From assembly GCA_036172245.1 (NCBI GenBank), contig JAYWIR010000003.1, forward strand, positions 2,046,001-2,110,000: a stretch of 64,000 nucleotides of DNA, written 5' to 3'. The notes under the pieces are model-generated. The model was not told where the DNA came from, searched no databases, and was given only the letters and a program-made list of their open reading frames with translations. Shown in pieces: positions 11,377 through 61,000 of this stretch. The translations under genes were made by a program, and so were the position numbers. The DNA is from Raillietiella orientalis. Taxonomy: Eukaryota. Numbering within the stretch: position 1 is the stretch's first letter; each line of letters begins with the position of its first letter.

Positions 11377-11508
11377 GTTTCTGTAATGCAAGGTTGTATA
11401 ACTGAGGGAGCCAACAATTCAGCAATGAGTGGTCTGGCATACCCTGCCACTCTCTGCTGAATACAAAAATAGCTTTTATTGATCTCAAGGAATGGAGAAA
11501 TTGAAAAT

Positions 11509-18739: not shown

Positions 18740-19645
18740 GAGGCGCATTTCAAAAGTAAGGGGGGACCGGATAGAAAGAAAGAACAAATGAGAGAAACAA
18801 AACTGTGTTGGCGATTCGAAACACGTGCATCCGCATGTGACTATTCTACGTAGTCGCCATTTTGTCTCCAGACACTTTTGATACCGTGGAAGATCCTTTT
18901 TGAAAGACCCTCTGCATAAAAGTCCGTCGCCTGGGGGTTCAGACAGTTTAGCAGCACTGCAGTTTTCAACTCCTCCCCTTCCCCCTCGCATCCTCGAGCC
19001 ACTTCTTGAGGTGCAGGAAGACTTGGTAGCCACTGGGGGCGAGGTCAGGACCGTAAGATCAAAAAGCTCCCATTCGAATTTCTGAGTCGTCTGGACAGCA
19101 CTGTGTGGGCGCGCGCCGTCGTGAAGGAGAAGAACGATTCCTGGTCTCAGCATTCTGAACGGCACGCCGCAGTGTTGAAAGTGTTTCTAAACAGTAGACT
19201 TGCGCACAGTAGATGGCTGTTCCAGGCTCCGTAAAGTCCACCAAAAGCACACACACCCTTTCGGTCCCACACACATGCCGTCCTCACATTCCAGACAATT
19301 CGAATATTCGAATGGGAACTTTTTGATCTTACAGTCCTGACCTCGCGTCCAGTGGCTACCAAGTCTTTCTGCACCTCAAGAAGTGGCTCAAGGATGCGAG
19401 GGGGAAGGGGAAGAGTTGAAAACTGCAGTGCTGCTGAACTGGCTGAACCCCCAGACGGCGGAATTTCATGCAGAGGGTTCCCCAGAGCTCCCCTTTCACG
19501 GTATCAAAAGTGTTTGAAAAAGAATGGTGACCACGTGGAAAAGTGACATGGGGATGCGTGTGTTTCGAACCACCAATACAGTTTTGTTTCTCTCATTTGT
19601 TCTTTCTTTCTATCCTATACGCCCTTTCTTTTGAGACGCGCCTCG
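18740..19645. mobile_element. Non-autonomous mariner derivative made of two inverted transposase 3' ends (fold-back MITE)
   Basis: Minus strand carries frameshifted mariner motifs WDRKG.LLVDF.EPGT, GIVLLLHDGARPH, WELFD, RYQKCL..NGDYVE. The plus strand at about 19290-19645 repeats the same 3' end. Ends are gaggcgcatttcaaaag and cttttgagacgcgcctcg followed by TA. Confidence 0.85.
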
Positions 19646-38775: not shown

Positions 38776-39558
38776 ATGCCTCAGAACGAGCACATAGAAT
38801 TGCACAAAAAACGCTATGGATACCGTTTGGATTATCATGAAAGAAAAAGAAAACGGTTGGGACGCCAGCCCCATAAAATCTCTGAGAAGGCCAGGAAACT
38901 GAAGGGCCTCAAAGCCAAATTTTACAATCGAAAACGATACCTTGAAAAGGTACAAATGAAGAAAACCATTAGCCAGTTTGAACGCAAGCAGACAAAAGAG
39001 ACCACACAGAAGTTTGATCATGATACAGCATTACCTGCATATTTATTAGATAGAGAAAAACAGAACCGGGCAAAAGTATTAAGCAATATGATTAAACAAA
39101 AAAGAAAAGAAAAAGCAGGAAAATGGGAAGTTCCATTACCAAAAGTGAAAGCAACAAGCCAGAGCGAGGTTTTCAAGGTTATTAAAACGGGCAAGTCACG
39201 AAGAAAGGCATGGAAAAGACTGGTTTCAAAAGTTTGTTATGTTGGTGAGGGATTTACAAGAAAACCTCCCAAATTTGAAAGATTCATAAGACCAATGGCA
39301 CTTAGGTTTAAAAAGGCTCATGTAACTCATCCTGATCTAAAAGCAACCTTTTGTCTTCCCATTATTGGTGTTAAAAAGAACCCCAATTCTCCACTGTTTA
39401 CAGGTCTTGGAGTTATAACAAAAGGGACAGTAATTGAAGTGAATGTAAGTGAATTGGGTTTGGTAACACAAGGTGGCAAAATTATTTGGGGTAAATATGC
39501 ACAAGTTACCAATAATCCAGAAAATGATGGTTGCATCAATGCTGTTTTACTAGTGTAA
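38776..39558 (+). CDS. NSA2: Ribosome biogenesis protein NSA2 homolog (intronless CDS, 260 aa)
   Basis: Starts [17 protein letters not shown], contains [27 protein letters not shown], and ends [22 protein letters not shown]. Confidence 0.97.
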
Positions 39559-41257
39559 ACAGATGTTTGCTTTGGCAGGAGAAGCCTTCTTGATCTTCAA
39601 ATGCAAATTTCCATCCATTATACATCACAATTTCTTGACTGTTAAGTTAGCTAATGTGTTTGCATGCAAAGGCTCAAACTTCTATCCTCATGTTTTGTGA
39701 TGCTATTCAAAATTCCTTCCAGTGTGCAGCCAATGAAAATATGTTCAAAATATTTCTGCACCATCTTGTAAGCATTTGAACATTAATTTAATAAAAAAAG
39801 ATGGTTGTTTTTGTGATAATTCCGATGCATGAAAAGGGGCGTAGCCACCAGATAAAGTTTTAATTGAAAAGAAAAGCATTAAATCATTCACCAAGTTTAC
39901 TGCATACTTTTCATGGAAATTCCTCAAAACATTCCTTGTCTTGTTTGGAACGTTTTGTATTAAGGTTGTTTTGAGGCGAATGATGGGTGCACAGAGATAT
40001 GCGCTAAATTGGTTTAATAACTGTTTTATTTACCTGAATTAACAAAATCAATGCAGAAGCTAATACTACAAGAATATATTATGAAAAGGCAGAATAAATC
40101 ATTAGGAGACGTGCATGTGTGTTTACATTGTGTATATCATTCAGATGTGTTCATAGCAAATTCTTACAAAGAGGATTCGTGAAAAATCGAAATTCGATTG
40201 CAGTCTGCCGTACTTCTACAACTTTTGGTTCTAAACCGTGAGACCGCTCCACATGATTCCTCATTTATTATTTATTTACATATTAGCCGTCCCTCTTCTT
40301 CGACTCTTTCCAAGCTCCCTCCCCAACATGAAGAAAAACCTTTCCCTTTGGGTCGGCAGAAGCCAAAACTCTCGCATAGTGAAGACGTTGTTTACATATT
40401 TCAAGTGAATAGACTGACAACATGGGAAGAGAATATCATGTCTCATATGTACACAGGTATCTTCATTGAGATTGTCCATTGATGACCTCGTTGATTCTTA
40501 GTTAAGATCGGTGGAGTAGTTAGTCTGATGGCCGATTATGGTTCCACAGTCTGTAAACTGAGGAAAGTGTGGAGATTATTCCACCATTGTTTGGACCACG
40601 GAAGCTTCTTGATGAAATACTATGCTAACGATTTCGTGAGACCCCTTCCCCTTCCCCTATGATGCTGCTGGCTCGAAATTAGAAGTAGCGAGCACCTTTT
40701 GCATACCGGTTCACCAGAAAGCACTTTGAAGTTGGAAGCAACAAACACTCAGTATCTCCGTAGGGAAAAAAAAATCCTACTCCATAATTATTTGAAAAAG
40801 CGAGTTTTCCATACAATCGGAAGCGCTGGGGAGCTTATTGTAAAATAAATAAGCAGTAACCAAAACAAAAACGAAAGTCACTCCTTCGTAACGGGACAAC
40901 AACACCATTACAAAACTCCAAGTGCAGGAGGCGTGTCTGCAACAAAGCAGAGTTCAAAGGAGAGTTCGCACAAAAAAAAAAGCAGACACATACCAAATAC
41001 CTCATAAAAACACAAAACAGAAAACTATCGCCCCAAAACATAGGTCTGGATGGAGAGCAAGAGAAAGGAACAAAACAAACAAACTAACAGCCACACCGAA
41101 AGCATCAGACAAAACAGCCGGAACGACTCCTGCTTGTTTGAGCGCCACTCTCTGCTGATGCAGCCAGGGGTTCTCAAGTGGGCAGCATTTCGAAGCAGCT
41201 GACCCTTCCAGAAATCGTTTTTCGCTTCGAGCAAGTAGCTCCCTCCCTCCCCCTCCT

Positions 41258-41895
41258 CCTTCCAAACCTCCCAACGCACCACGCACTTGCAGCTGCCCGC
41301 CACCTGCCGTTCCGCACTCTCCCCAGCCCGCTGCGCGCACGCGCGCTTTCCGAGGCATTTCCCGGCACCTCCGAGAGGAAACCGCGCTTCGACCCGAGGC
41401 AACTCTGGACCGCGGGCGAGAGCGCGACGGGCTCCCATTGGCCCGCAGCCCCCGAGAGACGCCCGCTCATTAAAAATGCGGAGCGTCGACGAAGCGAACG
41501 ACCCGTTGGCTCCTGCTTTCACCCATCTGCCGAATGCAACGCCGCTTCCCTCCCAACGCCCTCCCGCACGAGCATCATGGCTGCCGCCGCCAAACGACGA
41601 TTGGATGCTGGCTCGCGTGGGCCGAACGCGAGCCCGCTCCCCAGCGCGCCTCCGCGCTCCGTGATCGTCGTCGTCCCTGGCAACGGAACCTCGCGAGGTT
41701 CCGTCGGCATGCTCGCGGGCGGAGAAATTAGCGAATCCCGACGTGGGGGGCGCCGCCGCTGCCACCCGTTCGAGGGCGCTTTCCGACGCGCTGCCCGCAC
41801 CACATCGACCCGTGCGTCGCTCCTTCCGCCTCCGGGAGGCAAGAGCGAGAGGAGCCTCGTCCGAAGGCGACTTCGAATCGAGGGCGCACGCGTTC
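41258..41895 (+). repeat. GC-rich module copy A (truncated at its outer end)
   Basis: Direct copy of about 50646-51283; inverted relative to about 47655-48292 and 57043-57680. Confidence 0.92.
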
Positions 41896-44757
41896 CGCGC
41901 CCCATCAGCGGCGACATTCCGGCAATCTCTGAACGCAACCGAGCGCCGAGACCGCGCACCAAACCTGCTTCTTTCTCCCTCCTGGACGTGGTGAGATCTC
42001 CCTACCGATTGGTTCCAAGGTGGAGGCGTGCTCGCTGCTTCCAAACCGCGATCCCACCCTCGCCTGAAATGCGTTCCCGCGTTCGCTTCCGTCGGGCACC
42101 TTGCCCCGGGGAGCACCTTCCGTTCGCCTCGCTCGAGCCCAGCCCAGTTCCTCAACGCTTTCACCTTACGAGAACGCGCACCCTCAAAGTGGACGCAAGG
42201 AACGTGGCTGCTACGGTTTGGGGAGGCGCTCCCGGAGGGCTCGAGCGGATAATGGACGCCACACGAAATGGACTCTTGCAGCGAGGGAGAAAAGCTGCTC
42301 CAGGCAGGCCGCTCCGCGCAGGGATGCACGATGCTCTCTCCATGCACGATGCGCTAAGGGGGCCGAACGCACCGCAGACGTCGGTCGCACCTCCTCGACG
42401 AACCTGCCGCGCGCCTTGGGTTTCAAAAACGACCCCTGCAGCAGAGAGCATCTCTTCCAGCCTGCCTGGAACGTTCGAGCAGGTCAAGCGAAGACTGTCC
42501 CGTTCGTGCGTTGTCGCCTCTCACGACGGCGAAGATTCCACGAACACGCGCTTCTCGAGTCGCTACGGATACCCGCGAGCAAACGGGCGACGCGAATGCT
42601 TCCCTACAACATGCAAAGCGAAGGCACGCTGGCCACCATGCTTGGAAACGCCACGCACCTCGAACCAACGACAAACGCACCTCTCGCGGGAACGTGGCAG
42701 AAAGAACCCGGTTTCGATGTGTGGTCTCCCGTTCCATCCTCCCTCCAACCGCATCCCTTCTTAGGGGGCCTCCGCTCCGATTGCGCCTCTTCCGCGGAAC
42801 TTTCCAACCAAAGTCCGAACGAAAGCTCACGACACCCACGACCGCACGCAGGCCGAAGAACCAAAATTCAAAGGCGCTCCTGCGGCACCTTCAGCGCCAC
42901 CCTGTCAAAGTTCAAATCCATTCGCGGCTTCAGGAAAAGGAAACATCCCGGCAGCTCGTTGGAAGCATGGACTACTCGCACGCACCTTCCACGCAAGGGA
43001 ACGCACGTACACCTACCTCTCCACGCGCCTCGCGCTTGCCAACGAGTACGAACACCGTACGGACCGACGCGCAAAGCCACGAGGTTACCATCCAAGCACG
43101 AGAGCACCACCAACTCCACATTGCCTCCCCCACCAAAACGTGGATGCGCCATAAAGAGCGACAGCCATGCAGGCAACCCCCTCCTTTTCCACCAGACTTC
43201 CTCTCCGGCCCCTGATGATTTTCTGCAGATGCTACTCTTCCATGGGGCAACTACCTCCCTCCCTCCCTCCCGAATGGGCTACGAATTTCACTACCCGCAC
43301 AATGCCGAAAGCTGCGTGGCGTGGAAATCAAGCTCCCAATTTATGCTTCCCTCAGCCTGGACGCACCGTGGAAAAAGCCTGGGTTCCCAAAGGCCTCCCA
43401 ATACACATTTCGACCGAATCAATGATGCTCGGAACTTTCCAGGGGAACCTTCAGGATCCACAGCACTTTTGCAGAAAGCATCCCTTTGGGAATGCAACGT
43501 CCAACCCACAGATGCCATTCCTCTGCGACCAAACGCCCCAGTCAAGGGTCAGTTAAGATCAGAATCAACCTGAAACCATCCAATGCCATTTGACTGATGG
43601 ATGCAGCCTGATGAGAAATTCAAAAGCTCAACGGAATACCACCTGACAGGAAGACAGCATGCTGGGCGCGCAAACTGCATGCTCCATCGACAGATCACCA
43701 TGCTCCCAATCGGCCCGCTGGCATGCATCAGCAGCAAAAGCCTCCGAAACTGCTTGAACCTACCATGCCCACCCAATGCAACACCAAACACTGTGCTGGT
43801 TCGAGCCACCTAAACGCTTTCTCCCTGAGAGCAGGCTCCCTTTCCATACTGCTCAAAGCTTCCTGGACAACCCTCCCATCGCATGAGCCTGGAATGCAAA
43901 CAAGCCATGCGAACCCACCTTGGGATTCTCCCCTCCTCTCCCAAGTTCTTCATCAGTTGCCGTTTGTTCAACCATCCCAGGTTGAAAAACAAAAACCCCC
44001 TACCTCGGCACACTTTGCAAATTATTGTGGGTGGTCGTTAAACTAAACTCATGCTTACAATTTCCTTTGCACTCAACGCAGGCTCTCTCTTCACCACTCT
44101 CTCTGCCGCACGTCAAACGCTCACAGTTTGCAAGATTTACGTTAGATTTTACACTTGCAGAAATGCACTTCAGGAAGGGAACTTCAAGTGGCATTTCAGT
44201 TTTGCAAAACCAGGCACAGCTTCAACGATACATGCAAACAATATCTCCCGCAATGCTGATCCGGAAAGCACAACGGCAGACCAACCGTGTTGGGTGCACA
44301 GAAAACATCCTCATGATTATTATTCACCAAGCTTTCATTTTTGCCCTTGCTTGCCAGACAAAACACGATGCAACCATTTCTAAAATGGAACGTTGACATC
44401 CCAGAAGACAAAGGCTGATTTCCACAGCCAGACTCCACCAAACCGCTTTCCACACCGGCTGCATGCCATGCACAGCCACCAAACACTTCCTCATCATTCT
44501 GGATTTGCAATCAGCCCTGCACACTGCAACCGGTATTGCATCCCTGAGCACCAAATGAATTGCAGGCAAGCAAACAAGTGCAAGTTGCAGCTAATGCACC
44601 ACCTCTCATGGCCAAATCACAGCAGTGCAACAAGAACCACCTCTCTTGCACCTGTCTCTTGGCTTGGCAACACAGAAAAAGGATCGGTGAGCAGCGCCTC
44701 CAATCAGGCTGGCTTCCAGTCACCTCTGACGCTGTGCATTCTTTTTTTATTTCACCT

Positions 44758-46608
44758 CACAAGTCTCTGAACATCCGCAATATGGAGAACGAGCAAAATC
44801 GAGCTCACCAAACAAGATTACAACTTGGCTGCTAGGAGAAGGGAAAAAAAATGCAGCTGCATTGCAGCTGCCTTTCCCTCCACATCCCACCCCAGGCCTC
44901 CGACAGGGCATGCACTGGGTCGCTGTTTGGTGGCAACCATCAAAGAAGGCATGGAACTTGCACGTCGCATGGAAACCGGCCAGCCGTCTCACCATCGCGG
45001 TGTATTCGGCACACAATTCTCTGCCATTCCTAGGATGCAATACGTGCCCAACAGCAATGAATGGATGGATCTGCACAGCACTCCTGAAGTGCGTTCACGC
45101 GTCAAATAACAAGCTCAGCAAGCAGATGATGTCCCGTCCAAACGTACCTTTTCAAAAAGATCAAGAGCAGAAACCAAAACAACTAACTCTGCTTGGATGA
45201 GGATTCAAGGATGACTTTTGGGCACAATGCACCTTCATCGAGAATCCTGCTTTCCCAATGGTCCGGGCAGACACCTGGCCATTAGTGAAATGGAATGTGT
45301 TGCCAGGTGATCACAGCACCTTCAACTAGGAGGAAATCAAAAGTCCAACTTCCTCAAGGCGTTTAAGGGAACCTACCTCGCGCGTACCGTGTCCGAGTTC
45401 CGTACTTGAAAAGCCAACCAAGCGTTTCATCGTACCCATCCTTGCACGTGGCTACAACACGCATACAGAAACGTTTCGGTTTCTCGGAAGATCCCTGCTC
45501 ATACACCAAGTCACATGCAGTCGCTTCGCTCCCACTCCACCGAACCTCACTTCAAACATGGGGCGCTTGCGTACGCGCTCGCAAAGCAGCCGAAATGGCG
45601 GCGGCTTCCTTCAAGCACATGGCGTACCAAGTGACCCGATCGACGACCCAGTTGGCACGCCCCCAAACTCGTTCAGCTTTTCGTTCAACTTCCACATTTC
45701 CTGCGCCACCCACAAAGCTTTCACCGAGCAAACTCTCCAAGGCTTACCGCGGGCAGCTGACACACACGACGGGCTCGGCGAACAGCGGAATGGCGGCACA
45801 ATCAGGGCTGCCACTGCCTACAGCGAGCTCTCCAGTCGGAAATGCGATCGTGGAAGATCTAATCGATTGGGTGGCACCTTCAGTTACGAATGGAGTGGTC
45901 ATGGAGAGAAGCATCGGAAGGAGATTGGAAGAAGAATGAGGGATATAAGAGATGATTAGCATCCCGGGATTCTGGATTCCTGCATTCACTGACGAAAAAG
46001 AGCTGCCATTCGCAATAAGCATACAGCCTTCTTTCTTCAAAGCGATCCCTCCGATTCGGTGCATCTCTTGGTCGAAAGAAGACAGGTACGCGCACCCGCA
46101 TTCGATGGAACGAGCTGCTGGAAGAGTCTCTTTCTGTATCTGTTTGCAACCTACGCTTTCGTGTTGTTTTCCACAAGAGAACAAAAGGGCTGCTAACATG
46201 GGAAGAACCGAATCGTAACATTCATCGTACTCTTGAATCGAACGTTGGATCCCTACCCACGAAGCGATAAAGAAACTTCACGAGCCTACTCGAATCGCCA
46301 TCAGGCACATTTTCGCGCTCACCCATGTTTCTTAGTCGATCGTGGTTTCTGCTTTTGCCTGCCCGAAGAGCGATCGCTTGTCCCATTTGCCTTGTTTTGC
46401 CATCGCTACGAATTCTTACATTCTTTCTTACTCACATCATTCATCCCGAAGTTCGGTTTCTCCTTCGCGCACGGGTCGGCGATGGATCTCTCCAGAAGCG
46501 CCATTTCGAAACGAACACGAATCGCCACTTTCGTGTGCCGTTCCTTTCTCGCTTTTGCTGCTGTTACCACTGCTCCTGCCGCGAGCGGTGAACAGCGAAC
46601 TTGCATTT
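44758..46608 (-). other. Mirror copy of the candidate multi-exon transcript in the left arm
   Basis: Reverse complement of 52330-54180. Confidence 0.4.
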
Positions 46609-47654
46609 CGTCTCTTCGTTGAGGTCCTCAGCACATTCGAGGTTGCAATTTCCTTGGACAGTCAAACAAGTTCTCTGTCGATAGTAGCGTGGAAACGGGA
46701 ACCTCCGTCCGAATGCAAGGAATGTTTAGGAAGCGCACGCAACAAAAGACGAAACATCGGCTGCGAATGGCCCTCCACCGTTCCTGTTGGGTGCTTTCCT
46801 TTGAACCGGGGATCGCGCGCGCGCACGCGAAATTTAGTACGTCACAGCAACGCTGCCTGCATTTTCGCACCTGGAGCCTTCGGTCACTTGCTGGGTTCCC
46901 GAAACTCGTCGCATCTTTTCCTGCATTCACGCGTTTCCCTTTCCAGCGCGAACGACTTTGGACTGGCAAGTGCACACGACGCGGTGGCTGTTTCCTATCT
47001 ATGTGCACGTCCACGTCCGCTGAGGGATTGCGCTGCAAGAGCGTTTCGTCAACCCTCATTTTTCTATGGAGAATTGCTGGGAAAGTCATGTGCAAAGAGG
47101 AAAATCGCAGAAGCGCGCAGTGCAAGGTGAAATTCACGAGTGTTTCCACTCCCGAGTTGCACTATTCGAATCTGCCTTCTCGGCACCACGTGAGTGCCTT
47201 CGGAAGCGGCGACGCGTGTTGTATCCCTGGCTGAAAGACCGCAAAAAATCCGCTTCCTTGCAGATATGCGGAAGAGAATTCCACCGTCCGAGCCACGCGA
47301 ACGCATTGCTGCAGTCGTCCGATCTGCCGTGGTCCGCGAAATTGGACGAATATGCGATCTTACGCGCCTGATGTCTGCCTCGACGCTTCTCCAACGTCAT
47401 GCACCGAGCTCTCGTGCTTCCAAGATTCTTGGGTTTGGGTATTTCCTTTCCCCGACTTCGACGATCACCGCGGGAAGCGCGCAATGAATTTAAGCTTCAG
47501 CGGGAGGTGCGAGAGCTCCCGCAATTCCTCCACTCTGGGTAAACCCGGATCCCGTGTCCACCTTGGTGGAGCGTGTTCGCGTGAGGTGAAAACATCGAGG
47601 AATTGAGCGCTCGGACGAATATGCCACGCGGTTCGACGGATGCTGATCAGAGCA

Positions 47655-48711
47655 GAACGCGCGCGCCCTCGACCCGAAGTCGCCTTCGGACGATGCTCCT
47701 CTCGCTCTTGCCTCCCGGAGGCGGAAGGAGCGACGCACGGGTCGATGCGGTGCGGGCAGCGCGTCGGAAAGCGCCCTCGAACGGGTGGCAGCGGCGGCGC
47801 CCCCCACGTCGGGATTCGCTAATTTCTCCGCCCGCGAGCATGCCGACGGAACCTCGCGAGGTTCCGTTGCCAGGGACGACGACGATCACGGAGCGCGGAG
47901 GCGCGCTGGGGAGCGGGCTCGCGTTCGGCCCACGCGAGCCAGCATCCAATCGTCGTTTGGCGGCGGCAGCCATGATGCTCGTGCGGGAGGGCGTTGGGAG
48001 GGAAGCGGCGTTGCATTCGGCAGATGGGTGAAAGCAGGAGCCAACGGGTCGTTCGCTTCGTCGACGCTCCGCATTTTTAATGAGCGGGCGTCTCTCGGGG
48101 GCTGCGGGCCAATGGGAGCCCGTCGCGCTCTCGCCCGCGGTCCAGGGTTGCCTCGGGTCGAAGCGCGGTTTCCTCTCGGAGGTGCCGGGAAATGCCTCGG
48201 AAAGCGCGCGTGCGCGCAGCGGGCTGGGGAGAGTGCGGAACGGCAGGTGGCGGGCAGCTGCAAGTACGTGGTGCGTTGGGAGGTTTGGAAGGGAGAGGGG
48301 AAGGGGAGGGGGCTTTGGCGGGCAGTGCACGCGGTGGCGGACAACTGCAGGCCGCAGGGAATGCAGACTGCGGGCGGATTCTTCGCGGTGGGAGACCGCG
48401 CTGCGGTAAACGCAAGGTGGTGGTGGTGGTGGCTGCGGTGGTCGGGCTCGTTTGCCCCGTTGTGTTGGTACTCCTGGCGATCTCTCGTTCCTGTCGGCCG
48501 CGCCCTCGAGATGCTAAGGAGCAGCAAAAATAAACCGACAGGAAAAAAGGGTACACGGTAGCTCCCTTTGCGTGTGCTTCGGGATGGAAAACTCTTTTGC
48601 GGGTAGCGGACGCGAAAGGGAATACGGGAGTCTGGTTTACCCACACGAGTCCCGTTGCCAGAGACCATTCCGAAGTGCTGCGTCTTGTTTCGCGGGAAGC
48701 GACTGGAGGCG
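47655..48711 (-). repeat. GC-rich module copy B
   Basis: Aligns to 57043-58099 at a constant offset of 9388; core near-identical, last ~100 bp visibly diverged. Confidence 0.92.
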
Positions 48712-48904
48712 GGCTGCAGGGGAAACGCTGGGTACCAACAGGCATCGGCTGGCAAGGCGAGGAGCTGTTTGTTTGGTGGGGGAAGAAGCGTGCGACGTTC
48801 CCCTCGTTCCCCCTCTCTTTATTCATATGCGGAGCAGCGATGGGATCCCTTTCCGTCGATCGCGAGCTGTCCTGTGAGGGAGGGAAGCTGCATGAGGGCC
48901 AAGA

Positions 48905-49095
48905 GATCTGATTGGCTCAGTTGCGATGTACGTCCGTCGATGCGCATGTCATTTCGTGAATGAAATTTCGTGATTGGTGGATTGGCAGTGCGCTTTGAGT
49001 CGCCCTTGGAGTTGTCTAATCGAATCCCCTGTCCGTCGAGAATATCTAGTTGAGCTGACAGCAGAAAATCACAATTGTCAGGTGGCGCTCGCTAT
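48905..49095. promoter_or_regulatory. Candidate promoter motifs at the palindrome centre (inverted CCAAT boxes, CTCF-like caggtggcgc)
   Basis: ctgattggct at about 48908 (mirrored as agccaatcag at about 50021), gtgattggtggattggc at about 48970, and caggtggcgctc at about 49079. Confidence 0.3.
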
Positions 49096-50226
49096 TAGGA
49101 AGTCTATTTCCTAGGTTGCTGGTTTCCAGCAAGGAGAGCTATGAGCGTGAATCTCAGGCCACGCGGATTAGGAGAGAACGTATTTTCAATCTTCATGCAA
49201 GACCTGGGTTTTTCCCCCACCGTAGTCCTGCCAAATTTGAGATTTTCTTGGGAAAACGCTTCGATCTTTACTATTGATGTGGATTTGCGTGCCTTTGCGG
49301 AAATTTCTGCATTTCGAGATGTATGCTCGTGCAAAAAAAAAAGTGTCCAGGATTCAATATCGATGCTGGAATGCGAGATGCACCTATAATTATTCTGATT
49401 GTATGCAAATGAAAAAAAAAAAAGTTGTTCTATCAATGCAATATTTTTGTTGGATAAATGCTAAGGACGCGCACTATTCTACACTGTCTTTGATACTTTC
49501 GAATAGTTTTGAAAGCTACGGCTTCCTACTCAGGAAAACAAAATTATCCTTGGAATGCTTTTTTTAAAAAATGCAAAACATGGAGGGGATTCTCAAAGCG
49601 CGACACCCTTTTCAGATAAAAGGATAAAAGTGTGCCATCTGAATGTTGGAATCGAGAGACATTAAATGAAAATTCTTTCAAATTTTGAAGGTAATATAGG
49701 GACGCTACCAGCTGGGTGATTTATAGGCTTTCTAATAAAAAAATGAAAGCCCCGAACTAATAAAATACTTCCGTTTAAGCATTACCTTGGAAATCTGCTA
49801 CAAGGACTTTCAGGTAGCAACATCTCAAAGGGTATGGAGTAAAAACCCTGAAAACACGATACTTATACCAAGGGGAAAAACCAAATAGAAATTCTGCATT
49901 GCAGTCACTCCAAAGACACTCCAATGAGATCGATGTCGATTCGCGTAACTTCTCCAAAACCACAGTAAAACAAACAAAAAAGGAAATGACATGCGCATCG
50001 ACGGACGTACATCGCAACTGAGCCAATCAGATCTCTTGGCCCTCATGCAGCTTCCCTCCCTCACAGGACAGCTCGCGATCGACGGAAAGGGATCCCATCG
50101 CTGCTCCGCATATGAATAAAGAGAGGGGGAACGAGGGGAACGTCGCACGCTTCTTCCCCCACCAAACAAACAGCTCCTCGCCTTGCCAGCCGATGCCTGT
50201 TGGTACCCAGCGTTTCCCCTGCAGCC

Positions 50227-51283
50227 CGCCTCCAGTCGCTTCCCGCGAAACAAGACGCAGCACTTCGGAATGGTCTCTGGCAACGGGACTCGTGTGGGTA
50301 AACCAGACTCCCGTATTCCCTTTCGCGTCCGCTACCCGCAAAAGAGTTTTCCATCCCGAAGCACACGCAAAGGGAGCTACCGTGTACCCTTTTTTCCTGT
50401 CGGTTTATTTTTGCTGCTCCTTAGCATCTCGAGGGCGCGGCCGACAGGAACGAGAGATCGCCAGGAGTACCAACACAACGGGGCAAACGAGCCCGACCAC
50501 CGCAGCCACCACCACCACCACCTTGCGTTTACCGCAGCGCGGTCTCCCACCGCGAAGAATCCGCCCGCAGTCTGCATTCCCTGCGGCCTGCAGTTGTCCG
50601 CCACCGCGTGCACTGCCCGCCAAAGCCCCCTCCCCTTCCCCTCTCCCTTCCAAACCTCCCAACGCACCACGTACTTGCAGCTGCCCGCCACCTGCCGTTC
50701 CGCACTCTCCCCAGCCCGCTGCGCGCACGCGCGCTTTCCGAGGCATTTCCCGGCACCTCCGAGAGGAAACCGCGCTTCGACCCGAGGCAACCCTGGACCG
50801 CGGGCGAGAGCGCGACGGGCTCCCATTGGCCCGCAGCCCCCGAGAGACGCCCGCTCATTAAAAATGCGGAGCGTCGACGAAGCGAACGACCCGTTGGCTC
50901 CTGCTTTCACCCATCTGCCGAATGCAACGCCGCTTCCCTCCCAACGCCCTCCCGCACGAGCATCATGGCTGCCGCCGCCAAACGACGATTGGATGCTGGC
51001 TCGCGTGGGCCGAACGCGAGCCCGCTCCCCAGCGCGCCTCCGCGCTCCGTGATCGTCGTCGTCCCTGGCAACGGAACCTCGCGAGGTTCCGTCGGCATGC
51101 TCGCGGGCGGAGAAATTAGCGAATCCCGACATGGGGGGCGCCGCCGCTGCCACCCGTTCGAGGGCGCTTTCCGACGCGCTGCCCGCACCGCATCGACCCG
51201 TGCGTCGCTCCTTCCGCCTCCGGGAGGCAAGAGCGAGAGGAGCATCGTCCGAAGGCGACTTCGGGTCGAGGGCGCGCGCGTTC
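50227..51283 (+). repeat. GC-rich module copy C
   Basis: Mirror of copy B within the palindrome; inverted relative to copy D. Confidence 0.92.
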
Positions 51284-52329
51284 TGCTCTGATCAGCATCC
51301 GTCGAACCGCGTGGCATATTCGTCCGAGCGCTCAATTCCTCGATGTTTTCACCTCACGCGAACACGCTCCACCAAGGTGGACACGGGATCCGGGTTTACC
51401 CAGAGTGGAGGAATTGCGGGAGCTCTCGCACCTCCCGCTGAAGCTTAAATTCATTGCGCGCTTCCCGCGGTGATCGTCGAAGTCGGGGAAAGGAAATACC
51501 CAAACCCAAGAATCTTGGAAGCACGAGAGCTCGGTGCATGACGTTGGAGAAGCGTCGAGGCAGACATCAGGCGCGTAAGATCGCATATTCGTCCAATTTC
51601 GCGGACCACGGCAGATCGGACGACTGCAGCAATGCGTTCGCGTGGCTCGGACGGTGGAATTCTCTTCCGCATATCTGCAAGGAAGCGGATTTTTTGCGGT
51701 CTTTCAGCCAGGGATACAACACGCGTCGCCGCTTCCGAAGGCACTCACGTGGTGCCGAGAAGGCAGATTCGAATAGTGCAACTCGGGAGTGGAAACACTC
51801 GTGAATTTCACCTTGCACTGCGCGCTTCTGCGATTTTCCTCTTTGCACATGACTTTCCCAGCAATTCTCCATAGAAAAATGAGGGTTGACGAAACGCTCT
51901 TGCAGCGCAATCCCTCAGCGGACGTGGACGTGCACATAGATAGGAAACAGCCACCGCGTCGTGTGCACTTGCCAGTCCAAAGTCGTTCGCGCTGGAAAGG
52001 GAAACGCGTGAATGCAGGAAAAGATGCGACGAGTTTCGGGAACCCAGCAAGTGACCGAAGGCTCCAGGTGCGAAAATGCAGGCAGCGTTGCTGTGACGTA
52101 CTAAATTTCGCGTGCGCGCGCGCGATCCCCGGTTCAAAGGAAAGCACCCAACAGGAACGGTGGAGGGCCATTCGCAGCCGATGTTTCGTCTTTTGTTGCG
52201 TGCGCTTCCTAAACATTCCTTGCATTCGGACGGAGGTTCCCGTTTCCACGCTACTATCGACAGAGAACTTGTTTGACTGTCCAAGGAAATTGCAACCTCG
52301 AATGTGCTGAGGACCTCAACGAAGAGACG

Positions 52330-54180
52330 AAATGCAAGTTCGCTGTTCACCGCTCGCGGCAGGAGCAGTGGTAACAGCAGCAAAAGCGAGAAAGGAACGG
52401 CACACGAAAGTGGCGATTCGTGTTCGTTTCGAAATGGCGCTTCTGGAGAGATCCATCGCCGACCCGTGCGCGAAGGAGAAACCGAACTTCGGGATGAATG
52501 ATGTGAGTAAGAAAGAATGTAAGAATTCGTAGCGATGGCAAAACAAGGCAAATGGGACAAGCGATCGCTCTTCGGGCAGGCAAAAGCAGAAACCACGATC
52601 GACTAAGAAACATGGGTGAGCGCGAAAATGTGCCTGATGGCGATTCGAGTAGGCTCGTGAAGTTTCTTTATCGCTTCGTGGGTAGGGATCCAACGTTCGA
52701 TTCAAGAGTACGATGAATGTTACGATTCGGTTCTTCCCATGTTAGCAGCCCTTTTGTTCTCTTGTGGAAAACAACACGAAAGCGTAGGTTGCAAACAGAT
52801 ACAGAAAGAGACTCTTCCAGCAGCTCGTTCCATCGAATGCGGGTGCGCGTACCTGTCTTCTTTCGACCAAGAGATGCACCGAATCGGAGGGATCGCTTTG
52901 AAGAAAGAAGGCTGTATGCTTATTGCGAATGGCAGCTCTTTTTCGTCAGTGAATGCAGGAATCCAGAATCCCGGGATGCTAATCATCTCTTATATCCCTC
53001 ATTCTTCTTCCAATCTCCTTCCGATGCTTCTCTCCATGACCACTCCATTCGTAACTGAAGGTGCCACCCAATCGATTAGATCTTCCACGATCGCATTTCC
53101 GACTGGAGAGCTCGCTGTAGGCAGTGGCAGCCCTGATTGTGCCGCCATTCCGCTGTTCGCCGAGCCCGTCGTGTGTGTCAGCTGCCCGCGGTAAGCCTTG
53201 GAGAGTTTGCTCGGTGAAAGCTTTGTGGGTGGCGCAGGAAATGTGGAAGTTGAACGAAAAGCTGAACGAGTTTGGGGGCGTGCCAACTGGGTCGTCGATC
53301 GGGTCACTTGGTACGCCATGTGCTTGAAGGAAGCCGCCGCCATTTCGGCTGCTTTGCGAGCGCGTACGCAAGCGCCCCATGTTTGAAGTGAGGTTCGGTG
53401 GAGTGGGAGCGAAGCGACTGCATGTGACTTGGTGTATGAGCAGGGATCTTCCGAGAAACCGAAACGTTTCTGTATGCGTGTTGTAGCCACGTGCAAGGAT
53501 GGGTACGATGAAACGCTTGGTTGGCTTTTCAAGTACGGAACTCGGACACGGTACGCGCGAGGTAGGTTCCCTTAAACGCCTTGAGGAAGTTGGACTTTTG
53601 ATTTCCTCCTAGTTGAAGGTGCTGTGATCACCTGGCAACACATTCCATTTCACTAATGGCCAGGTGTCTGCCCGGACCATTGGGAAAGCAGGATTCTCGA
53701 TGAAGGTGCATTGTGCCCAAAAGTCATCCTTGAATCCTCATCCAAGCAGAGTTAGTTGTTTTGGTTTCTGCTCTTGATCTTTTTGAAAAGGTACGTTTGG
53801 ACGGGACATCATCTGCTTGCTGAGCTTGTTATTTGACGCGTGAACGCACTTCAGGAGTGCTGTGCAGATCCATCCATTCATTGCTGTTGGGCACGTATTG
53901 CATCCTAGGAATGGCAGAGAATTGTGTGCCGAATACACCGCGATGGTGAGACGGCTGGCCGGTTTCCATGCGACGTGCAAGTTCCATGCCTTCTTTGATG
54001 GTTGCCACCAAACAGCGACCCAGTGCATGCCCTGTCGGAGGCCTGGGGTGGGATGTGGAGGGAAAGGCAGCTGCAATGCAGCTGCATTTTTTTTCCCTTC
54101 TCCTAGCAGCCAAGTTGTAATCTTGTTTGGTGAGCTCGATTTTGCTCGTTCTCCATATTGCGGATGTTCAGAGACTTGTG
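52330..54180 (+). other. Candidate multi-exon transcript of unknown product in the right arm
   Basis: Chain of GT-AG segments matching this genome's intron size: 52503-52547 (45), 52616-52652 (37), 52914-52958 (45), 53191-53237 (47), 53562-53612 (51), 53619-53663 (45), 53706-53749 (44). Splicing opens TCKDGYDETLGWLFKYGTRTRYAR-VE-GVCPDHWESRILDE-ELVVLVSALDLFEK. Confidence 0.4.
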
Positions 54181-57042
54181 AGGTGAAATAAAAAAAGAAT
54201 GCACAGCGTCAGAGGTGACTGGAAGCCAGCCTGATTGGAGGCGCTGCTCACCGATCCTTTTTCTGTGTTGCCAAGCCAAGAGACAGGTGCAAGAGAGGTG
54301 GTTCTTGTTGCACTGCTGTGATTTGGCCATGAGAGGTGGTGCATTAGCTGCAACTTGCACTTGTTTGCTTGCCTGCAATTCATTTGGTGCTCAGGGATGC
54401 AATACCGGTTGCAGTGTGCAGGGCTGATTGCAAATCCAGAATGATGAGGAAGTGTTTGGTGGCTGTGCATGGCATGCAGCCGGTGTGGAAAGCGGTTTGG
54501 TGGAGTCTGGCTGTGGAAATCAGCCTTTGTCTTCTGGGATGTCAACGTTCCATTTTAGAAATGGTTGCATCGTGTTTTGTCTGGCAAGCAAGGGCAAAAA
54601 TGAAAGCTTGGTGAATAATAATCATGAGGATGTTTTCTGTGCACCCAACACGGTTGGTCTGCCGTTGTGCTTTCCGGATCAGCATTGCGGGAGATATTGT
54701 TTGCATGTATCGTTGAAGCTGTGCCTGGTTTTGCAAAACTGAAATGCCACTTGAAGTTCCCTTCCTGAAGTGCATTTCTGCAAGTGTAAAATCTAACGTA
54801 AATCTTGCAAACTGTGAGCGTTTGACGTGCGGCAGAGAGAGTGGTGAAGAGAGAGCCTGCGTTGAGTGCAAAGGAAATTGTAAGCATGAGTTTAGTTTAA
54901 CGACCACCCACAATAATTTGCAAAGTGTGCCGAGGTAGGGGGTTTTTGTTTTTCAACCTGGGATGGTTGAACAAACGGCAACTGATGAAGAACTTGGGAG
55001 AGGAGGGGAGAATCCCAAGGTGGGTTCGCATGGCTTGTTTGCATTCCAGGCTCATGCGATGGGAGGGTTGTCCAGGAAGCTTTGAGCAGTATGGAAAGGG
55101 AGCCTGCTCTCAGGGAGAAAGCGTTTAGGTGGCTCGAACCAGCACAGTGTTTGGTGTTGCATTGGGTGGGCATGGTAGGTTCAAGCAGTTTCGGAGGCTT
55201 TTGCTGCTGATGCATGCCAGCGGGCCGATTGGGAGCATGGTGATCTGTCGATGGAGCATGCAGTTTGCGCGCCCAGCATGCTGTCTTCCTGTCAGGTGGT
55301 ATTCCGTTGAGCTTTTGAATTTCTCATCAGGCTGCATCCATCAGTCAAATGGCATTGGATGGTTTCAGGTTGATTCTGATCTTAACTGACCCTTGACTGG
55401 GGCGTTTGGTCGCAGAGGAATGGCATCTGTGGGTTGGACGTTGCATTCCCAAAGGGATGCTTTCTGCAAAAGTGCTGTGGATCCTGAAGGTTCCCCTGGA
55501 AAGTTCCGAGCATCATTGATTCGGTCGAAATGTGTATTGGGAGGCCTTTGGGAACCCAGGCTTTTTCCACGGTGCGTCCAGGCTGAGGGAAGCATAAATT
55601 GGGAGCTTGATTTCCACGCCACGCAGCTTTCGGCATTGTGCGGGTAGTGAAATTCGTAGCCCATTCGGGAGGGAGGGAGGGAGGTAGTTGCCCCATGGAA
55701 GAGTAGCATCTGCAGAAAATCATCAGGGGCCGGAGAGGAAGTCTGGTGGAAAAGGAGGGGGTTGCCTGCATGGCTGTCGCTCTTTATGGCGCATCCACGT
55801 TTTGGTGGGGGAGGCAATGTGGAGTTGGTGGTGCTCTCGTGCTTGGATGGTAACCTCGTGGCTTTGCGCGTCGGTCCGTACGGTGTTCGTACTCGTTGGC
55901 AAGCGCGAGGCGCGTGGAGAGGTAGGTGTACGTGCGTTCCCTTGCGTGGAAGGTGCGTGCGAGTAGTCCATGCTTCCAACGAGCTGCCGGGATGTTTCCT
56001 TTTCCTGAAGCCGCGAATGGATTTGAACTTTGACAGGGTGGCGCTGAAGGTGCCGCAGGAGCGCCTTTGAATTTTGGTTCTTCGGCCTGCGTGCGGTCGT
56101 GGGTGTCGTGAGCTTTCGTTCGGACTTTGGTTGGAAAGTTCCGCGGAAGAGGCGCAATCGGAGCGGAGGCCCCCTAAGAAGGGATGCGGTTGGAGGGAGG
56201 ATGGAACGGGAGACCACACATCGAAACCGGGTTCTTTCTGCCACGTTCCCGCGAGAGGTGCGTTTGTCGTTGGTTCGAGGTGCGTGGCGTTTCCAAGCAT
56301 GGTGGCCAGCGTGCCTTCGCTTTGCATGTTGTAGGGAAGCATTCGCGTCGCCCGTTTGCTCGCGGGTATCCGTAGCGACTCGAGAAGCGCGTGTTCGTGG
56401 AATCTTCGCCGTCGTGAGAGGCGACAACGCACGAACGGGACAGTCTTCGCTTGACCTGCTCGAACGTTCCAGGCAGGCTGGAAGAGATGCTCTCTGCTGC
56501 AGGGGTCGTTTTTGAAACCCAAGGCGCGCGGCAGGTTCGTCGAGGAGGTGCGACCGACGTCTGCGGTGCGTTCGGCCCCCTTAGCGCATCGTGCATGGAG
56601 AGAGCATCGTGCATCCCTGCGCGGAGCGGCCTGCCTGGAGCAGCTTTTCTCCCTCGCTGCAAGAGTCCATTTCGTGTGGCGTCCATTATCCGCTCGAGCC
56701 CTCCGGGAGCGCCTCCCCAAACCGTAGCAGCCACGTTCCTTGCGTCCACTTTGAGGGTGCGCGTTCTCGTAAGGTGAAAGCGTTGAGGAACTGGGCTGGG
56801 CTCGAGCGAGGCGAACGGAAGGTGCTCCCCGGGGCAAGGTGCCCGACGGAAGCGAACGCGGGAACGCATTTCAGGCGAGGGTGGGATCGCGGTTTGGAAG
56901 CAGCGAGCACGCCTCCACCTTGGAACCAATCGGTAGGGAGATCTCACCACGTCCAGGAGGGAGAAAGAAGCAGGTTTGGTGCGCGGTCTCGGCGCTCGGT
57001 TGCGTTCAGAGATTGCCGGAATGTCGCCGCTGATGGGGCGCG

Positions 57043-58099
57043 GAACGCGTGCGCCCTCGATTCGAAGTCGCCTTCGGACGAGGCTCCTCTCGCTCTTGCC
57101 TCCCGGAGGCGGAAGGAGCGACGCACGGGTCGATGTGGTGCGGGCAGCGCGTCGGAAAGCGCCCTCGAACGGGTGGCAGCGGCGGCGCCCCCCACGTCGG
57201 GATTCGCTAATTTCTCCGCCCGCGAGCATGCCGACGGAACCTCGCGAGGTTCCGTTGCCAGGGACGACGACGATCACGGAGCGCGGAGGCGCGCTGGGGA
57301 GCGGGCTCGCGTTCGGCCCACGCGAGCCAGCATCCAATCGTCGTTTGGCGGCGGCAGCCATGATGCTCGTGCGGGAGGGCGTTGGGAGGGAAGCGGCGTT
57401 GCATTCGGCAGATGGGTGAAAGCAGGAGCCAACGGGTCGTTCGCTTCGTCGACGCTCCGCATTTTTAATGAGCGGGCGTCTCTCGGGGGCTGCGGGCCAA
57501 TGGGAGCCCGTCGCGCTCTCGCCCGCGGTCCAGGGTTGCCTCGGGTCGAAGCGCGGTTTCCTCTCGGAGGTGCCGGGAAATGCCTCGGAAAGCGCGCGTG
57601 CGCGCAGCGGGCTGGGGAGAGTGCGGAACGGCAGGTGGCGGGCAGCTGCAAGTGCGTGGTGCGTTGGGAGGTGTGGAAGGGAGAGGGGAAGGGGAGGGGG
57701 CTTTGGCGGGCAGTGCATGCGGTGGCGGACAACTGAAGGCCGCAGGGAATGCAGACTGCGGGCGGATTCTTCGCGGTGGGAGACCGCGCTGCGGTAAACG
57801 CAAGGTGGTGGTGGTGGTGGCTGCGGTGGTCGGGCTCGTTTGCCCCGTTGTGTTGGTACTCCTGGCGATCTCTCGTTCCTGTCGGCCGCGCCCTCGAGAT
57901 GCTAAGGAGCAGCAAAAATAAACCGTCAGGAAAAAAGGGTACACGGTAGCTCCCTTTGCGTGTGCTTCGGGATGGAAAACTCTTTTGCGAGTAGCGGACG
58001 CGGAAGGGAATATGGGTGTTCCGTTTTTCGACACAAGCCCCGTTGCCTGAGGCCATCGCAAAGTGCTGCGTCTTGTTTCGCGGGAAGATGGTGGAGGCG
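57043..58099 (-). repeat. GC-rich module copy D (extends about 420 bp beyond the palindrome end)
   Basis: Same orientation as copy B; similarity continues to ...cgcgggaag..tggaggcg at 58099. Confidence 0.92.
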
Positions 58100-61000
58100 C
58101 ACAGTAGCAAAAAGCTTTCTGATTCCACGGTCATCCTTTGGTGTGTGTGAGGGTTCTTTGTCACATTGATGCTGAGGCGACAGGACCTTGCAGGACGCCC
58201 TACTAGCGTGTTCTTTCAACTGAGTAAAGGATTGGCCATGTTGAGCAATTTGGTTTCTATTTCAGAGGGAATTCGATGAAGTGTATTGCTGAAGTATGGC
58301 TTTTCCCGGAAAGCTGTTGCTAGGGCGTTCGTCTCCCGCATTTGCGTTTTTGCTCTTCCGCAAGGTTGGAATATTTCTCGTGCGACGAGTATTGACGTTG
58401 GACTTGGTGTGGTTCCTGTTGAGCAGGTTTGGCGCTAGTGAAGCGGGTGGCGCATGACTGTTTTCTCGAATAAGTGTGAAGGTGATGTAGGGCTCTTGTC
58501 TTCCTGCAAGAGACGTTATTGTGGCTATCTGACCGACTGTGGCAGGAGCAAGTAACGCTCCTTTAAGGAATGAGAAGAGGAAATGTCTTCGTCATGAGTA
58601 GGCAGCACCGTCGTTGCCTGTTCTACGGTGTACCTGCTGAATTACCTTCCGGACTCGATAGCGGTTCCATCCTTGCAATCCCGTTTTGCCTCATCCGTGC
58701 AACTGTAGGAGGTCGCTTGCTTTTTGCATTGCTTTTCCCGTGGCTGAAAGCGAGCAGCTTGAAGGGAAAGACCACGAGTGAGCTCGTGACACATTCTGCA
58801 GCAGGCAAGCGGTGAGAAGGTGTGCTGGAGGTCCCAGTCGTTTCAGGAGCAGAATCTGCAACACGGAGGCGATTCCCCTTGCCGTTTGCTGTGCTTGCTC
58901 TGACCGAAAAGCGTCTGGAAGGGTTAGCTGCATCGAAATGGTGCCCACTTGAAAGTCCCTAGCTACATCTGCACAGCGTAGCAGCACAAGGACAAGCAAG
59001 AGTCCCTCTGGCTGTTTTGTCCGGAGCCCTCGAGCTTTTTTAGAAAAGAACAGCGCACTCAAAAGGACCTTGGATTGCATGGAAAACCAATCACTGCCTC
59101 TCCTACAGTTGAAGACTTTTGCTGCGCCTTTTTACCAAGGGTAGTAAAGACTGCAGATTTTGAAGACCAAAGTGAGCTTGAAAATCTCTGAAGCATTTCC
59201 TGTGGGCATTGCTGAGCTGGGGTCAGTTGTGAACAGTTTCTATGTATGAAACTGAGTCACATGGGGGGCTTGCGAAAAACCAGCTCAGGCAAGCATAAAC
59301 TTTTTGCACACTTAGAACACAGGTACTCATGAAAGGAGGCAAAACCTGTCCTATGGTTTGTAATAGGCAATAGAAGTAGGAACCTTGTGCCTGTAAACAT
59401 CTCCTGGTTGAACGCTGATGTATTTCAAAGAAAGGCCTTTTATTCCAAGGTGAGGAGCATGCAACTTAACCCAGCGTCTATGAAAAACTTCCCTTAAAGC
59501 AGAATGCTGAAAGGCAACAGAAACACAGGTCTTCCTCGAGTTCTCAGTTCAACAGAAACACAGGCAAATGAACTCAAAGTAACAGTACTATGAAAACCCT
59601 TACAGAACACAGTTCGTTACATGCTTTCATGAGAAACTGAAAGCAAAACACTTCAGCTGGTGCGCAAAGATGAGATGCATGCATTATGGTAAGAAAGAGA
59701 AAGAATAGAAAGTTGCATGCTCACATGACAGCATTCCCTTCTTTGTGGAACGAGCAACCACAGAAATGCATTTCACACTAATTCAGCCAAACACATTTGA
59801 TCATCAGATTTTCTCATGATTCCTTTGAGGAAGTGTGGCTGAAATATCAACTCATGTTGGTCTGGAAGCAGAGGTTTGTTGCCTGTGCTTGAAAAATGCA
59901 GCAAGCACTTCTCATGGTGTGTGCAGACTTGTTTTCTGCACTGCTGAATAAATGTAGACGGTAATATTCTGTTGGCAGGTGGGGTAGTGGGGATGTCTTA
60001 TGATGAGGACCAAGGAGTTCTTGTGGTACTTGCAAGATGAAAGACATCTGCAGACCTCAATGGTGTAAAATGAGATCAAGACCATGAGTCTGTCTAGTTA
60101 TTGCTTGCTGCCAACGGATCTACTCACATTGAAATCCATTCTGATTGTTTGCCTACTTGCACATGCATAAACAGTCATGCACTAGCAATACATTGCTGAT
60201 TGTCCAATTTTGATTAAGTGCAGGGTAAGAAAAGCTGAGTGGGGCAAAAGATGGCACAACTCACATCCCCACCACCTTTGTGTCTAACTCTCCCTCCAAC
60301 AAACATGAAAGGGAGAGAGCAAAAAAGGAAAATGGCTTGCTAATGCTGCCTGCAGACCAATGGAACGCAAGGTATGCAACATGACATCTACCTCTTCCCA
60401 GCATCACTTACATATTGACCCGTATTGCTTTTGGCAAGCAGTTGTAAATAGAAATTTGCAAAAAAGCGGCCAAAGCATACAGTGGGACTCCGATGGATGT
60501 ATCTGACCCAATTGTAAAAACGGTTTCCTCTACTTGCAACCTACTGTTCACAAACATTTGAAGCTTTGGAATCTTTTTGGTACCACCCTTGGATGCATCC
60601 TTCTCATGCACCAAAACGTTATCCGCAGTGCTTCTAAAACAACAGACGGAGATTCGGGGCATGCCATATTTTACCCAACATTTGCATCTACGTTTTCTTG
60701 GATGGATGGTAACTGATGGCAAAAGGCAAGCGGGTCATGAACCTCCACCACGTTACACTGACTGGTAATGGAAATGCAAAAATAAAAAGGATTTCTATCC
60801 GCCCTACGATTTATTTCGAACATACAGGCAGTACCCCTACCGTTCACTTGAAAGAAGCACATTTATGATCCGTTCTCAAGAACTGATGGCACAAAAAGAA
60901 AAATCCACAGCAAGTGATGGCGATTATTTTGACAAAAAGAAATTACTTCCAGGAACGGAAAACACCACCATTTGACACACCACGGCATAGTGAATAAGCG

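Follow-up and report, generated by a model that had tools for sequence, protein, structure and literature searches.

A near-perfect palindrome of 16,423 bp was analysed in a 64,000-nucleotide stretch of Raillietiella orientalis DNA (the window; C3:2,046,001-2,110,000, where C3 is the contig that holds it, in a genome assembly of 210 Mb and 491 contigs). Its best explanation, which we hold with moderate confidence, is that non-coding DNA, probably with promoters, was duplicated long ago into nested inverted copies, which would have been homogenised by recurrent intrachromosomal gene conversion. The palindrome is probably not a fresh duplication, because its near-identical core ends within older inverted homology that lies in register with it. 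All results on the palindrome refer to the assembly sequence of one genome. We are highly confident that it is real in the assembly, and probably in the genome. It consists of the following parts.

41258..48955, plus strand: left arm, 7,698 bp, 99.96% identical to the right arm
48956..49982, no strand: unique spacer, 1,027 bp, 40% GC
49983..57680, minus strand: right arm, reverse complement of the left arm

Exact alignment of the arms, in which position x pairs with 98938-x over 41258-48955, gave three substitutions (41265, 41404 and 47807) and no insertion or deletion (indel) in 7,698 bp, an identity of 99.961%. An earlier account made from the letters alone (the sequence-only reading) had described a 16.4-kb near-perfect palindrome with 7.7-kb arms and a 1027-bp spacer, and had noticed only three mismatches, all in a four-copy GC module; both points were borne out by the alignment, and the four copies, M1 to M4, were located. 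The longest perfect arm-to-arm run was 6,402 bp. Two of the three mismatches lay within 150 bp of the outer end, and each of the three was private to one of the four module copies. The inner boundary was sharp, with a 9-bp direct repeat straddling the left junction (48951 and 48965), and BLAST extended the arms outwards to 41237/57702 through a diverged purine tract of 21-22 bp. A DNA search of the 210-Mb genome, in which very common words were skipped, found the two arms and local module copies and no further copy of the arms. No other near-identical fold-back was found in 464 kb around the window (C3:1,846,001-2,310,000), where the next inverted matches were 1,016 bp at 96% and 637 bp at 98.7%, nor in 151 kb from 18 loci on 10 contigs (small contigs and the ends of large ones), where the best inverted match within a contig reached 88%.

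Each arm starts and ends with inverted copies of a module of about 1.07 kb (66-69% GC; CpG observed/expected ratio (o/e) 1.2-1.3). The module copies and the older remnants around them were as follows.

41097..41235, minus strand: old outer homology block adjoining the arm end, 77.5% identical to 58894-59032 (BLAST, E 1.5e-23; 110/139 in a global alignment)
41237..41257, minus strand: diverged purine tract in register with 57681-57702, its score equalled by 1 of 5,888 control 21-mers
41237..41909, minus strand: GC module M4, truncated at 41237, 69% GC, CpG o/e 1.28
42129..42243, plus strand: oldest remnant of the inner inverted pair, 66% identical to 47510-47618
47642..48711, plus strand: GC module M1, identical to M3 over the 517 bp 47749-48265, with stepwise divergence on both sides
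50227..51296, minus strand: GC module M2, mirror of M1
57029..58099, plus strand: GC module M3, extending about 400 bp past the arm end, 94% identical to M1/M2
57703..58893, plus strand: 1,191-bp indel that separates the arm end from the old homology block, present on the right side and absent on the left
58894..59032, plus strand: right-hand partner of the old homology block, matching 41097-41235

M3 continues beyond the arm while M4 is cut at 41237; therefore, the break lies on the left side. M1 and M3 differed at 32 of 1,059 positions, yet shared an identical run of 517 bp, which none of 200,000 random placements of the differences reached (mean longest run, 129). In addition, 15 of the 32 differences were crowded into 48 bp (48625-48672) beside an identical 27-bp patch. 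The identity of the inner module pair was thus patchy, from the 517 identical bases down to 66-69% at the edges. A single duplication leaves an even divergence, whereas repeated conversion leaves a patchwork.

Three age layers can be distinguished: the inner module pair; the outer pair, comprising the 21-bp tract, the 1,191-bp indel and 139 bp at 77-79%; and the 99.96% core. No other flank-to-flank match like the old outer block was found within 36-64 kb. An age greater than the arm identity suggests, as under concerted evolution, would fit the old flanking homology and the module mosaic of this one genome. The sequence-only reading had called the palindrome "very young or actively homogenised"; the older outer inverted homology and the mosaic of module identities fit homogenisation better, and extreme youth less well.

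In the simplest history, a unit with an older inverted pair inside it underwent an inverted duplication long ago, and the core was homogenised recently. As the remnants show, the module of about 1 kb and its surroundings were copied in inverted orientation at a distance of 5.7 kb, so long ago that unconverted parts of the inner pair have fallen to about 66%. The whole unit was then duplicated again, inverted, around the 1-kb spacer; the unconverted outer parts of this second pair are now about 78% alike and differ by the 1.19-kb indel. Finally, breaks in one arm may have been repaired from the other through fold-back pairing, which would yield arms of 99.96% identity and a patchwork of tracts across the four modules, and the 1.19-kb indel may block the outward spread of conversion tracts. 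Tentatively, the modules could be CpG-island-like promoters of non-coding transcripts, and the symmetry could be a by-product of repair, not a selected device.

Several observations weigh against recurrent conversion of non-coding DNA. One genome does not separate recurrent conversion over the long arms from one recent long tract. The module part makes up 22% of the arm but contains all three mismatches (chance 0.011), which leaves the 6.4-kb interior free of them; a mismatch-free interior is also expected of a collapsed assembly consensus. The two 300-bp windows with the strongest codon periodicity in the region lie in the paralogous flank block (chi-square 23.7 and 19.1, against a value of 19 reached by 0.8% of 495 background windows), and a decayed or very divergent coding exon in this block is possible. 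Furthermore, palindromic blocks in Folsomia span a wide range of synonymous divergence (Ks), and concerted evolution was rejected by the authors (PMC5490193).

The arms might instead stem from a single recent template switch or break-induced replication, in which the old, diverged left copy broke near 41258, 7.7 kb were copied from the right copy and the ends were rejoined at the spacer through microhomology; such arms would be young and would decay. This event is rather unlikely in our judgement. In its favour, the sharp inner boundary with the 9-bp repeat over the left junction would be in keeping with a one-off switch, there are just three private substitutions, and the copied tract begins exactly in the old homology. 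On the other hand, it leaves the multi-level module mosaic unexplained, since the mosaic needs several earlier conversion tracts at the same locus. If the palindrome is real but its arm interiors were merged by the assembler or polisher, the true identity would be below 99.96%, and one would expect the 6,402 bp free of differences, the two differences adjoining unique flank and the confinement of all three to 22% of the arm. We consider such merging unlikely, as the difference at 47807 was kept 1.1 kb from unique sequence, all three differences survived although the other module copies outnumber them three to one, and the assembly resolves tandem arrays of 93-94% identity over more than 9 kb, which suggests long reads.

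A fold-back chimera or a haplotype duplication, with one arm absent from the genome, is highly improbable. Amplification chimeras are known to yield near-perfect inverted copies, but two chimeric junctions would be required in the middle of a 7.4-Mb contig, one of them in register inside old homology, and no comparable fold-back occurs in the sampled sequence (464 kb and 18 loci). A flip of two haplotypes between modules would place the left flank at M2 and the right flank at M1, which was not seen. The least probable of the explanations considered is a non-autonomous transposon with terminal inverted repeats of about 1 kb (M2 to M3) that made a local inverted hop. The segment 50227-58099 is indeed flanked by 1.07-kb inverted repeats at 96.5%; however, no dispersed copies were found in the genome, the repeat ends fade without a sharp stop, the duplicated unit lacks a partner terminus for its outer 244 bp, inspection by eye saw no target-site duplication at the junctions, and no transposase domain was found. 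A foldback-type transposon with long terminal inverted repeats was disfavoured, since neither dispersed copies nor, by eye, sharp termini with a target-site duplication were found. Homogenisation of an old nested duplication by conversion remains the preferred explanation.

No protein-coding gene was recognised in an arm or in the spacer, although lineage-specific small exons could escape. Pfam searches with 27 open reading frames (ORFs) at E up to 0.5 gave nothing past the cut-off except the flanking Ig/fn3 and NSA2 controls, and none of 102 of the 125 ORFs in 39.6-50 kb, or of 68 of the 72 in 57.7-64 kb, matched at the curated cut-off. Of the other 23 ORFs in 39.6-50 kb, 20 were in the set of 27 in the same or a longer form and three short frames at the spacer edge were unscanned. 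These scans of the ORFs of the palindrome and its near flanks detected no transposase, reverse transcriptase or recombinase domain, in agreement with the sequence-only reading. The 395-aa ORF (41577-42761) had no match among 1.84 billion representatives and none in phages; in its own genome, it and the 501-aa ORF matched local copies only. No homologue was found for the 177-aa ORF or, among longer proteins only, for the 114-aa ORF at 45595. The Atlas protein searches gave no usable match, and a 25-base module pattern had no match in metagenome contigs.

A bias of base by codon position was present in 8/8 control ORFs (p 1.8e-3 to 3e-28) and in none of the 395-, 501-, 310- and 304-aa arm frames (p 0.40-0.97), and GC was flat over the three codon positions in the long arm ORFs. 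The "unknown gene pair" proposed for the arms is thus unsupported as a protein-coding one: no family or homologue was matched, and the long ORFs lacked the bias of the controls. Periodicity was marginal in a 442-aa arm frame (p 0.04) and weak in the 114-aa ORF at 45595 (p 0.01; one of 10 arm frames tested), which is a coding candidate. A 540-aa frame exceeded the usual length in local shuffles (0.2% of 500), which points toward coding; it had no periodicity (p 0.43), and frames of 460-520 aa with like composition occur in the neighbouring GC-rich DNA. Synonymous and non-synonymous counts in the old paralogous blocks were too small to choose a frame, and generic splice-site scoring was uninformative, known genes included. 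No homeobox lies within the window, and the arms were not recognisable as Hox3/zen copies.

For non-coding content, Rfam gave three matches, all with E of 0.25 or more. No tRNA and no strong precursor hairpin was detected (4/292 windows below z -3, best -3.4). A cluster of microRNAs or other known non-coding RNAs was rejected, as no Rfam family, tRNA or strong hairpin was found. No sequence homologous to a hairpin RNA (endogenous small interfering RNA) from the palindrome, and hence no target, was found elsewhere in the genome. Each module carries, in promoter order, motifs that we take to be NRF1-like, CCAAT, AT-rich and YY1-like, in small counts; on the plus strand of M4 they are presumably the NRF1-like site (41334), CCAAT (41437-41443), the AT-rich box (41469) and the YY1-like/ATG site (41577). 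YY1-, NRF1- and CCAAT-like motifs each occurred four times in one arm and the spacer together, at a density about 4-6 times that of the background, a count in which module copies are partly included twice. Additional CCAAT boxes were located at the spacer edge. Two CpG-depleted tracts, the first with a mirror copy, were also found.

43200..45200 (mirror 53700-55700), no strand: CpG-depleted, TpG-rich tract in the arm, resembling nearby gene bodies, with no recognisable coding exon
58800..60800, no strand: right-flank tract depleted in CpG (o/e 0.35) and rich in TpG, no coding exon recognised

In 624 kb scanned, CpG-depleted tracts of such strength mostly overlapped conserved-looking genes, some of them with putative names. 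Exon methylation of transcribed genes is ancestral in arthropods, according to one study (PMC7343188). The CpG-depleted tracts and promoter-like motifs probably represent non-coding transcription units.

The palindrome has a housekeeping block (ihog-like, NSA2) on one side and a split Hox cluster on the other. It also sits at the border of an AT-rich, CpG-depleted block and a GC-rich, CpG-neutral domain, in a region (C3:1,846,001-2,310,000) that is strongly two-phase, AT-rich, CpG-depleted blocks with genes of housekeeping type alternating with GC-rich (55-70%), CpG-neutral domains. The Ig/fibronectin receptor gene on the left is presumably ihog-like, and the last recognisable gene before the palindrome is the following.

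38776..39558, plus strand: NSA2 homologue, single ORF, best identity 80%

To the right, none of 117 ORFs up to the first exon of the next gene matched Pfam at E 0.001. That gene, on the plus strand, has its start at C3:2,136,020, at a distance of 32 kb from the right arm, and its homeobox at 2,148,771; its homeodomain is of the Antennapedia class, and from diagnostic motifs and its place we take it to be Dfd-like. Further along, a miR-10-like hairpin below the Rfam cut-off lies on the minus strand at C3:2,213,058, followed by six minus-strand homeoboxes (2.31-2.85 Mb), which we read from diagnostic residues as Scr, ftz, Antp, Ubx, abd-A and Abd-B. On the same basis, lab and pb are presumed to lie at 5.71 and 5.79 Mb, 2.9 Mb further along. 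A miR-993-like hairpin was found on another contig. The Hox cluster is in three pieces: C3:2,136,020-2,849,310, C3:5,714,247-5,794,115 and C1:9,060,709. The 18 strongest other homeobox matches and two C3 matches included no Hox3 homeobox, nor was one found in the 100 kb scanned at pb and the 60 kb surrounding miR-993. The Dfd-like gene is on the plus strand, and miR-10 and Scr to Abd-B are on the minus strand. Therefore, Dfd stands in inverted orientation, and the cluster has its break towards the palindrome.

The link between the palindrome and the Hox break is positional only so far. A causal role is unsupported: under a staggered-break model, the other breakpoint should also carry a copy, yet C3:2110001-2310000, 60 kb around miR-993 and 100 kb at pb gave no match, only a local 115-bp repeat. 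If the local copies recombined with one another, inversion would be confined to the spacer or to the 5.7-kb inner segments. Bolder, and of low probability, is the idea that the broken cluster has its new outer boundary in a nested palindrome that is free of genes and kept identical by conversion, that the four promoter-like modules of this palindrome drive convergent non-coding transcripts folding into hairpins of about 660 bp or serve the inverted Dfd as an enhancer or boundary, and that the locus is the fragile site of the split from pb/Hox3.

Other elements were noted in and around the window. About 24 kb upstream of the Dfd-like gene, C3:2,111,100-2,111,760 (L019:1100-1760) contains what we take to be a TATA-like box and clustered Hox/Pbx-like sites, and it is possibly an autoregulatory enhancer or promoter. 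At the right end of the window, a 231-aa minus-strand frame (L015:7535-8227; window 63,737-64,000 and beyond) was codon-periodic (p 4e-4) and contained an internal repeat of 115 bp at 77%; pieces of it had no Pfam match, and it is a possible lineage-specific exon. About 5 kb left of the window, a 939-aa acidic, low-complexity plus-strand ORF with strong codon bias was found (L058:2708-5524). Window 1,874-2,752 holds a 183-bp inverted repeat at 87% around 514 bp, a probable miniature inverted-repeat transposable element. The exons at 9,934-13,259 presumably belong to MOCS3/UBA4 (plus) and ADCK1 (minus) homologues, and 18,740-19,644 is presumably a decayed mariner-like fragment, with inverted halves at 85% and a copy at C3:1,942,088 at 91%. 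A 218-aa coiled-coil-like ORF at 20,964-21,620 (minus) had weak Pfam matches below the cut-off (THOC7, E 0.004). Tandem arrays with units of about 280 bp and 1.1 kb, at 92-95% identity, were seen at contig ends (L106-L109, L114-L115).

Arm-to-arm conversion is documented mainly in gene-bearing palindromes of sex chromosomes, and has reportedly been found on the mouse X. Our literature search for palindromes next to Hox clusters of arthropods, or for nested ones in this group, with thin coverage of subscription journals, led to work on Folsomia candida (PMC5490193). Its palindromic collinear blocks and those of Adineta vaga are, as here, inverted duplications in an invertebrate genome, and Folsomia likewise has a rearranged Hox cluster. 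However, those blocks contain many genes and have a wide, often high Ks, whereas the present palindrome has no recognised gene and 99.96% identity, and the Folsomia Hox breakpoints are reported to carry transposons, not a palindrome (PMC5490193). The locus resembles the staggered-break inversion model in having an inverted duplicate of non-repetitive DNA near a rearrangement boundary (PMC1885836). In that model the copies sit at the two breakpoints, whereas here both lie 1 kb apart and no match was found beyond the Dfd-like gene in the stretches named above. The split Hox cluster of Tetranychus shares the pb/Dfd break and the missing Hox3 (PMC4862073); unlike in Tetranychus, the Dfd-like gene is also inverted, miR-10 has remained on the side of Scr, miR-993 lies on a different contig and there is an abd-A-like gene.

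As in mammalian X/Y palindromes (PMC8327919), the arms are inverted and more than 99% identical, the spacer is unique and the inner boundary is sharp. The 1,027-bp spacer falls in the range of primate X palindromes (77 bp to 358 kb), while the 7,698-bp arms are just below the 8-kb filter applied to them; 21 of 26 human X palindromes have a protein-coding gene, in contrast to the present one, in which none was recognised (PMC8327919). A nested four-copy module and an arthropod-like host also set it apart from the mammalian cases. The sequence-only reading had noticed neither the history of nesting nor the neighbouring Hox cluster, which is split and partly inverted. The position at the broken anterior edge of the cluster makes a link between palindrome and Hox rearrangement testable. 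If the preferred explanation is true, this small, nested, apparently non-coding, arthropod-like palindrome would be an easy system in which to measure conversion tracts, offering four module copies, three levels of divergence and several possible flip isomers.

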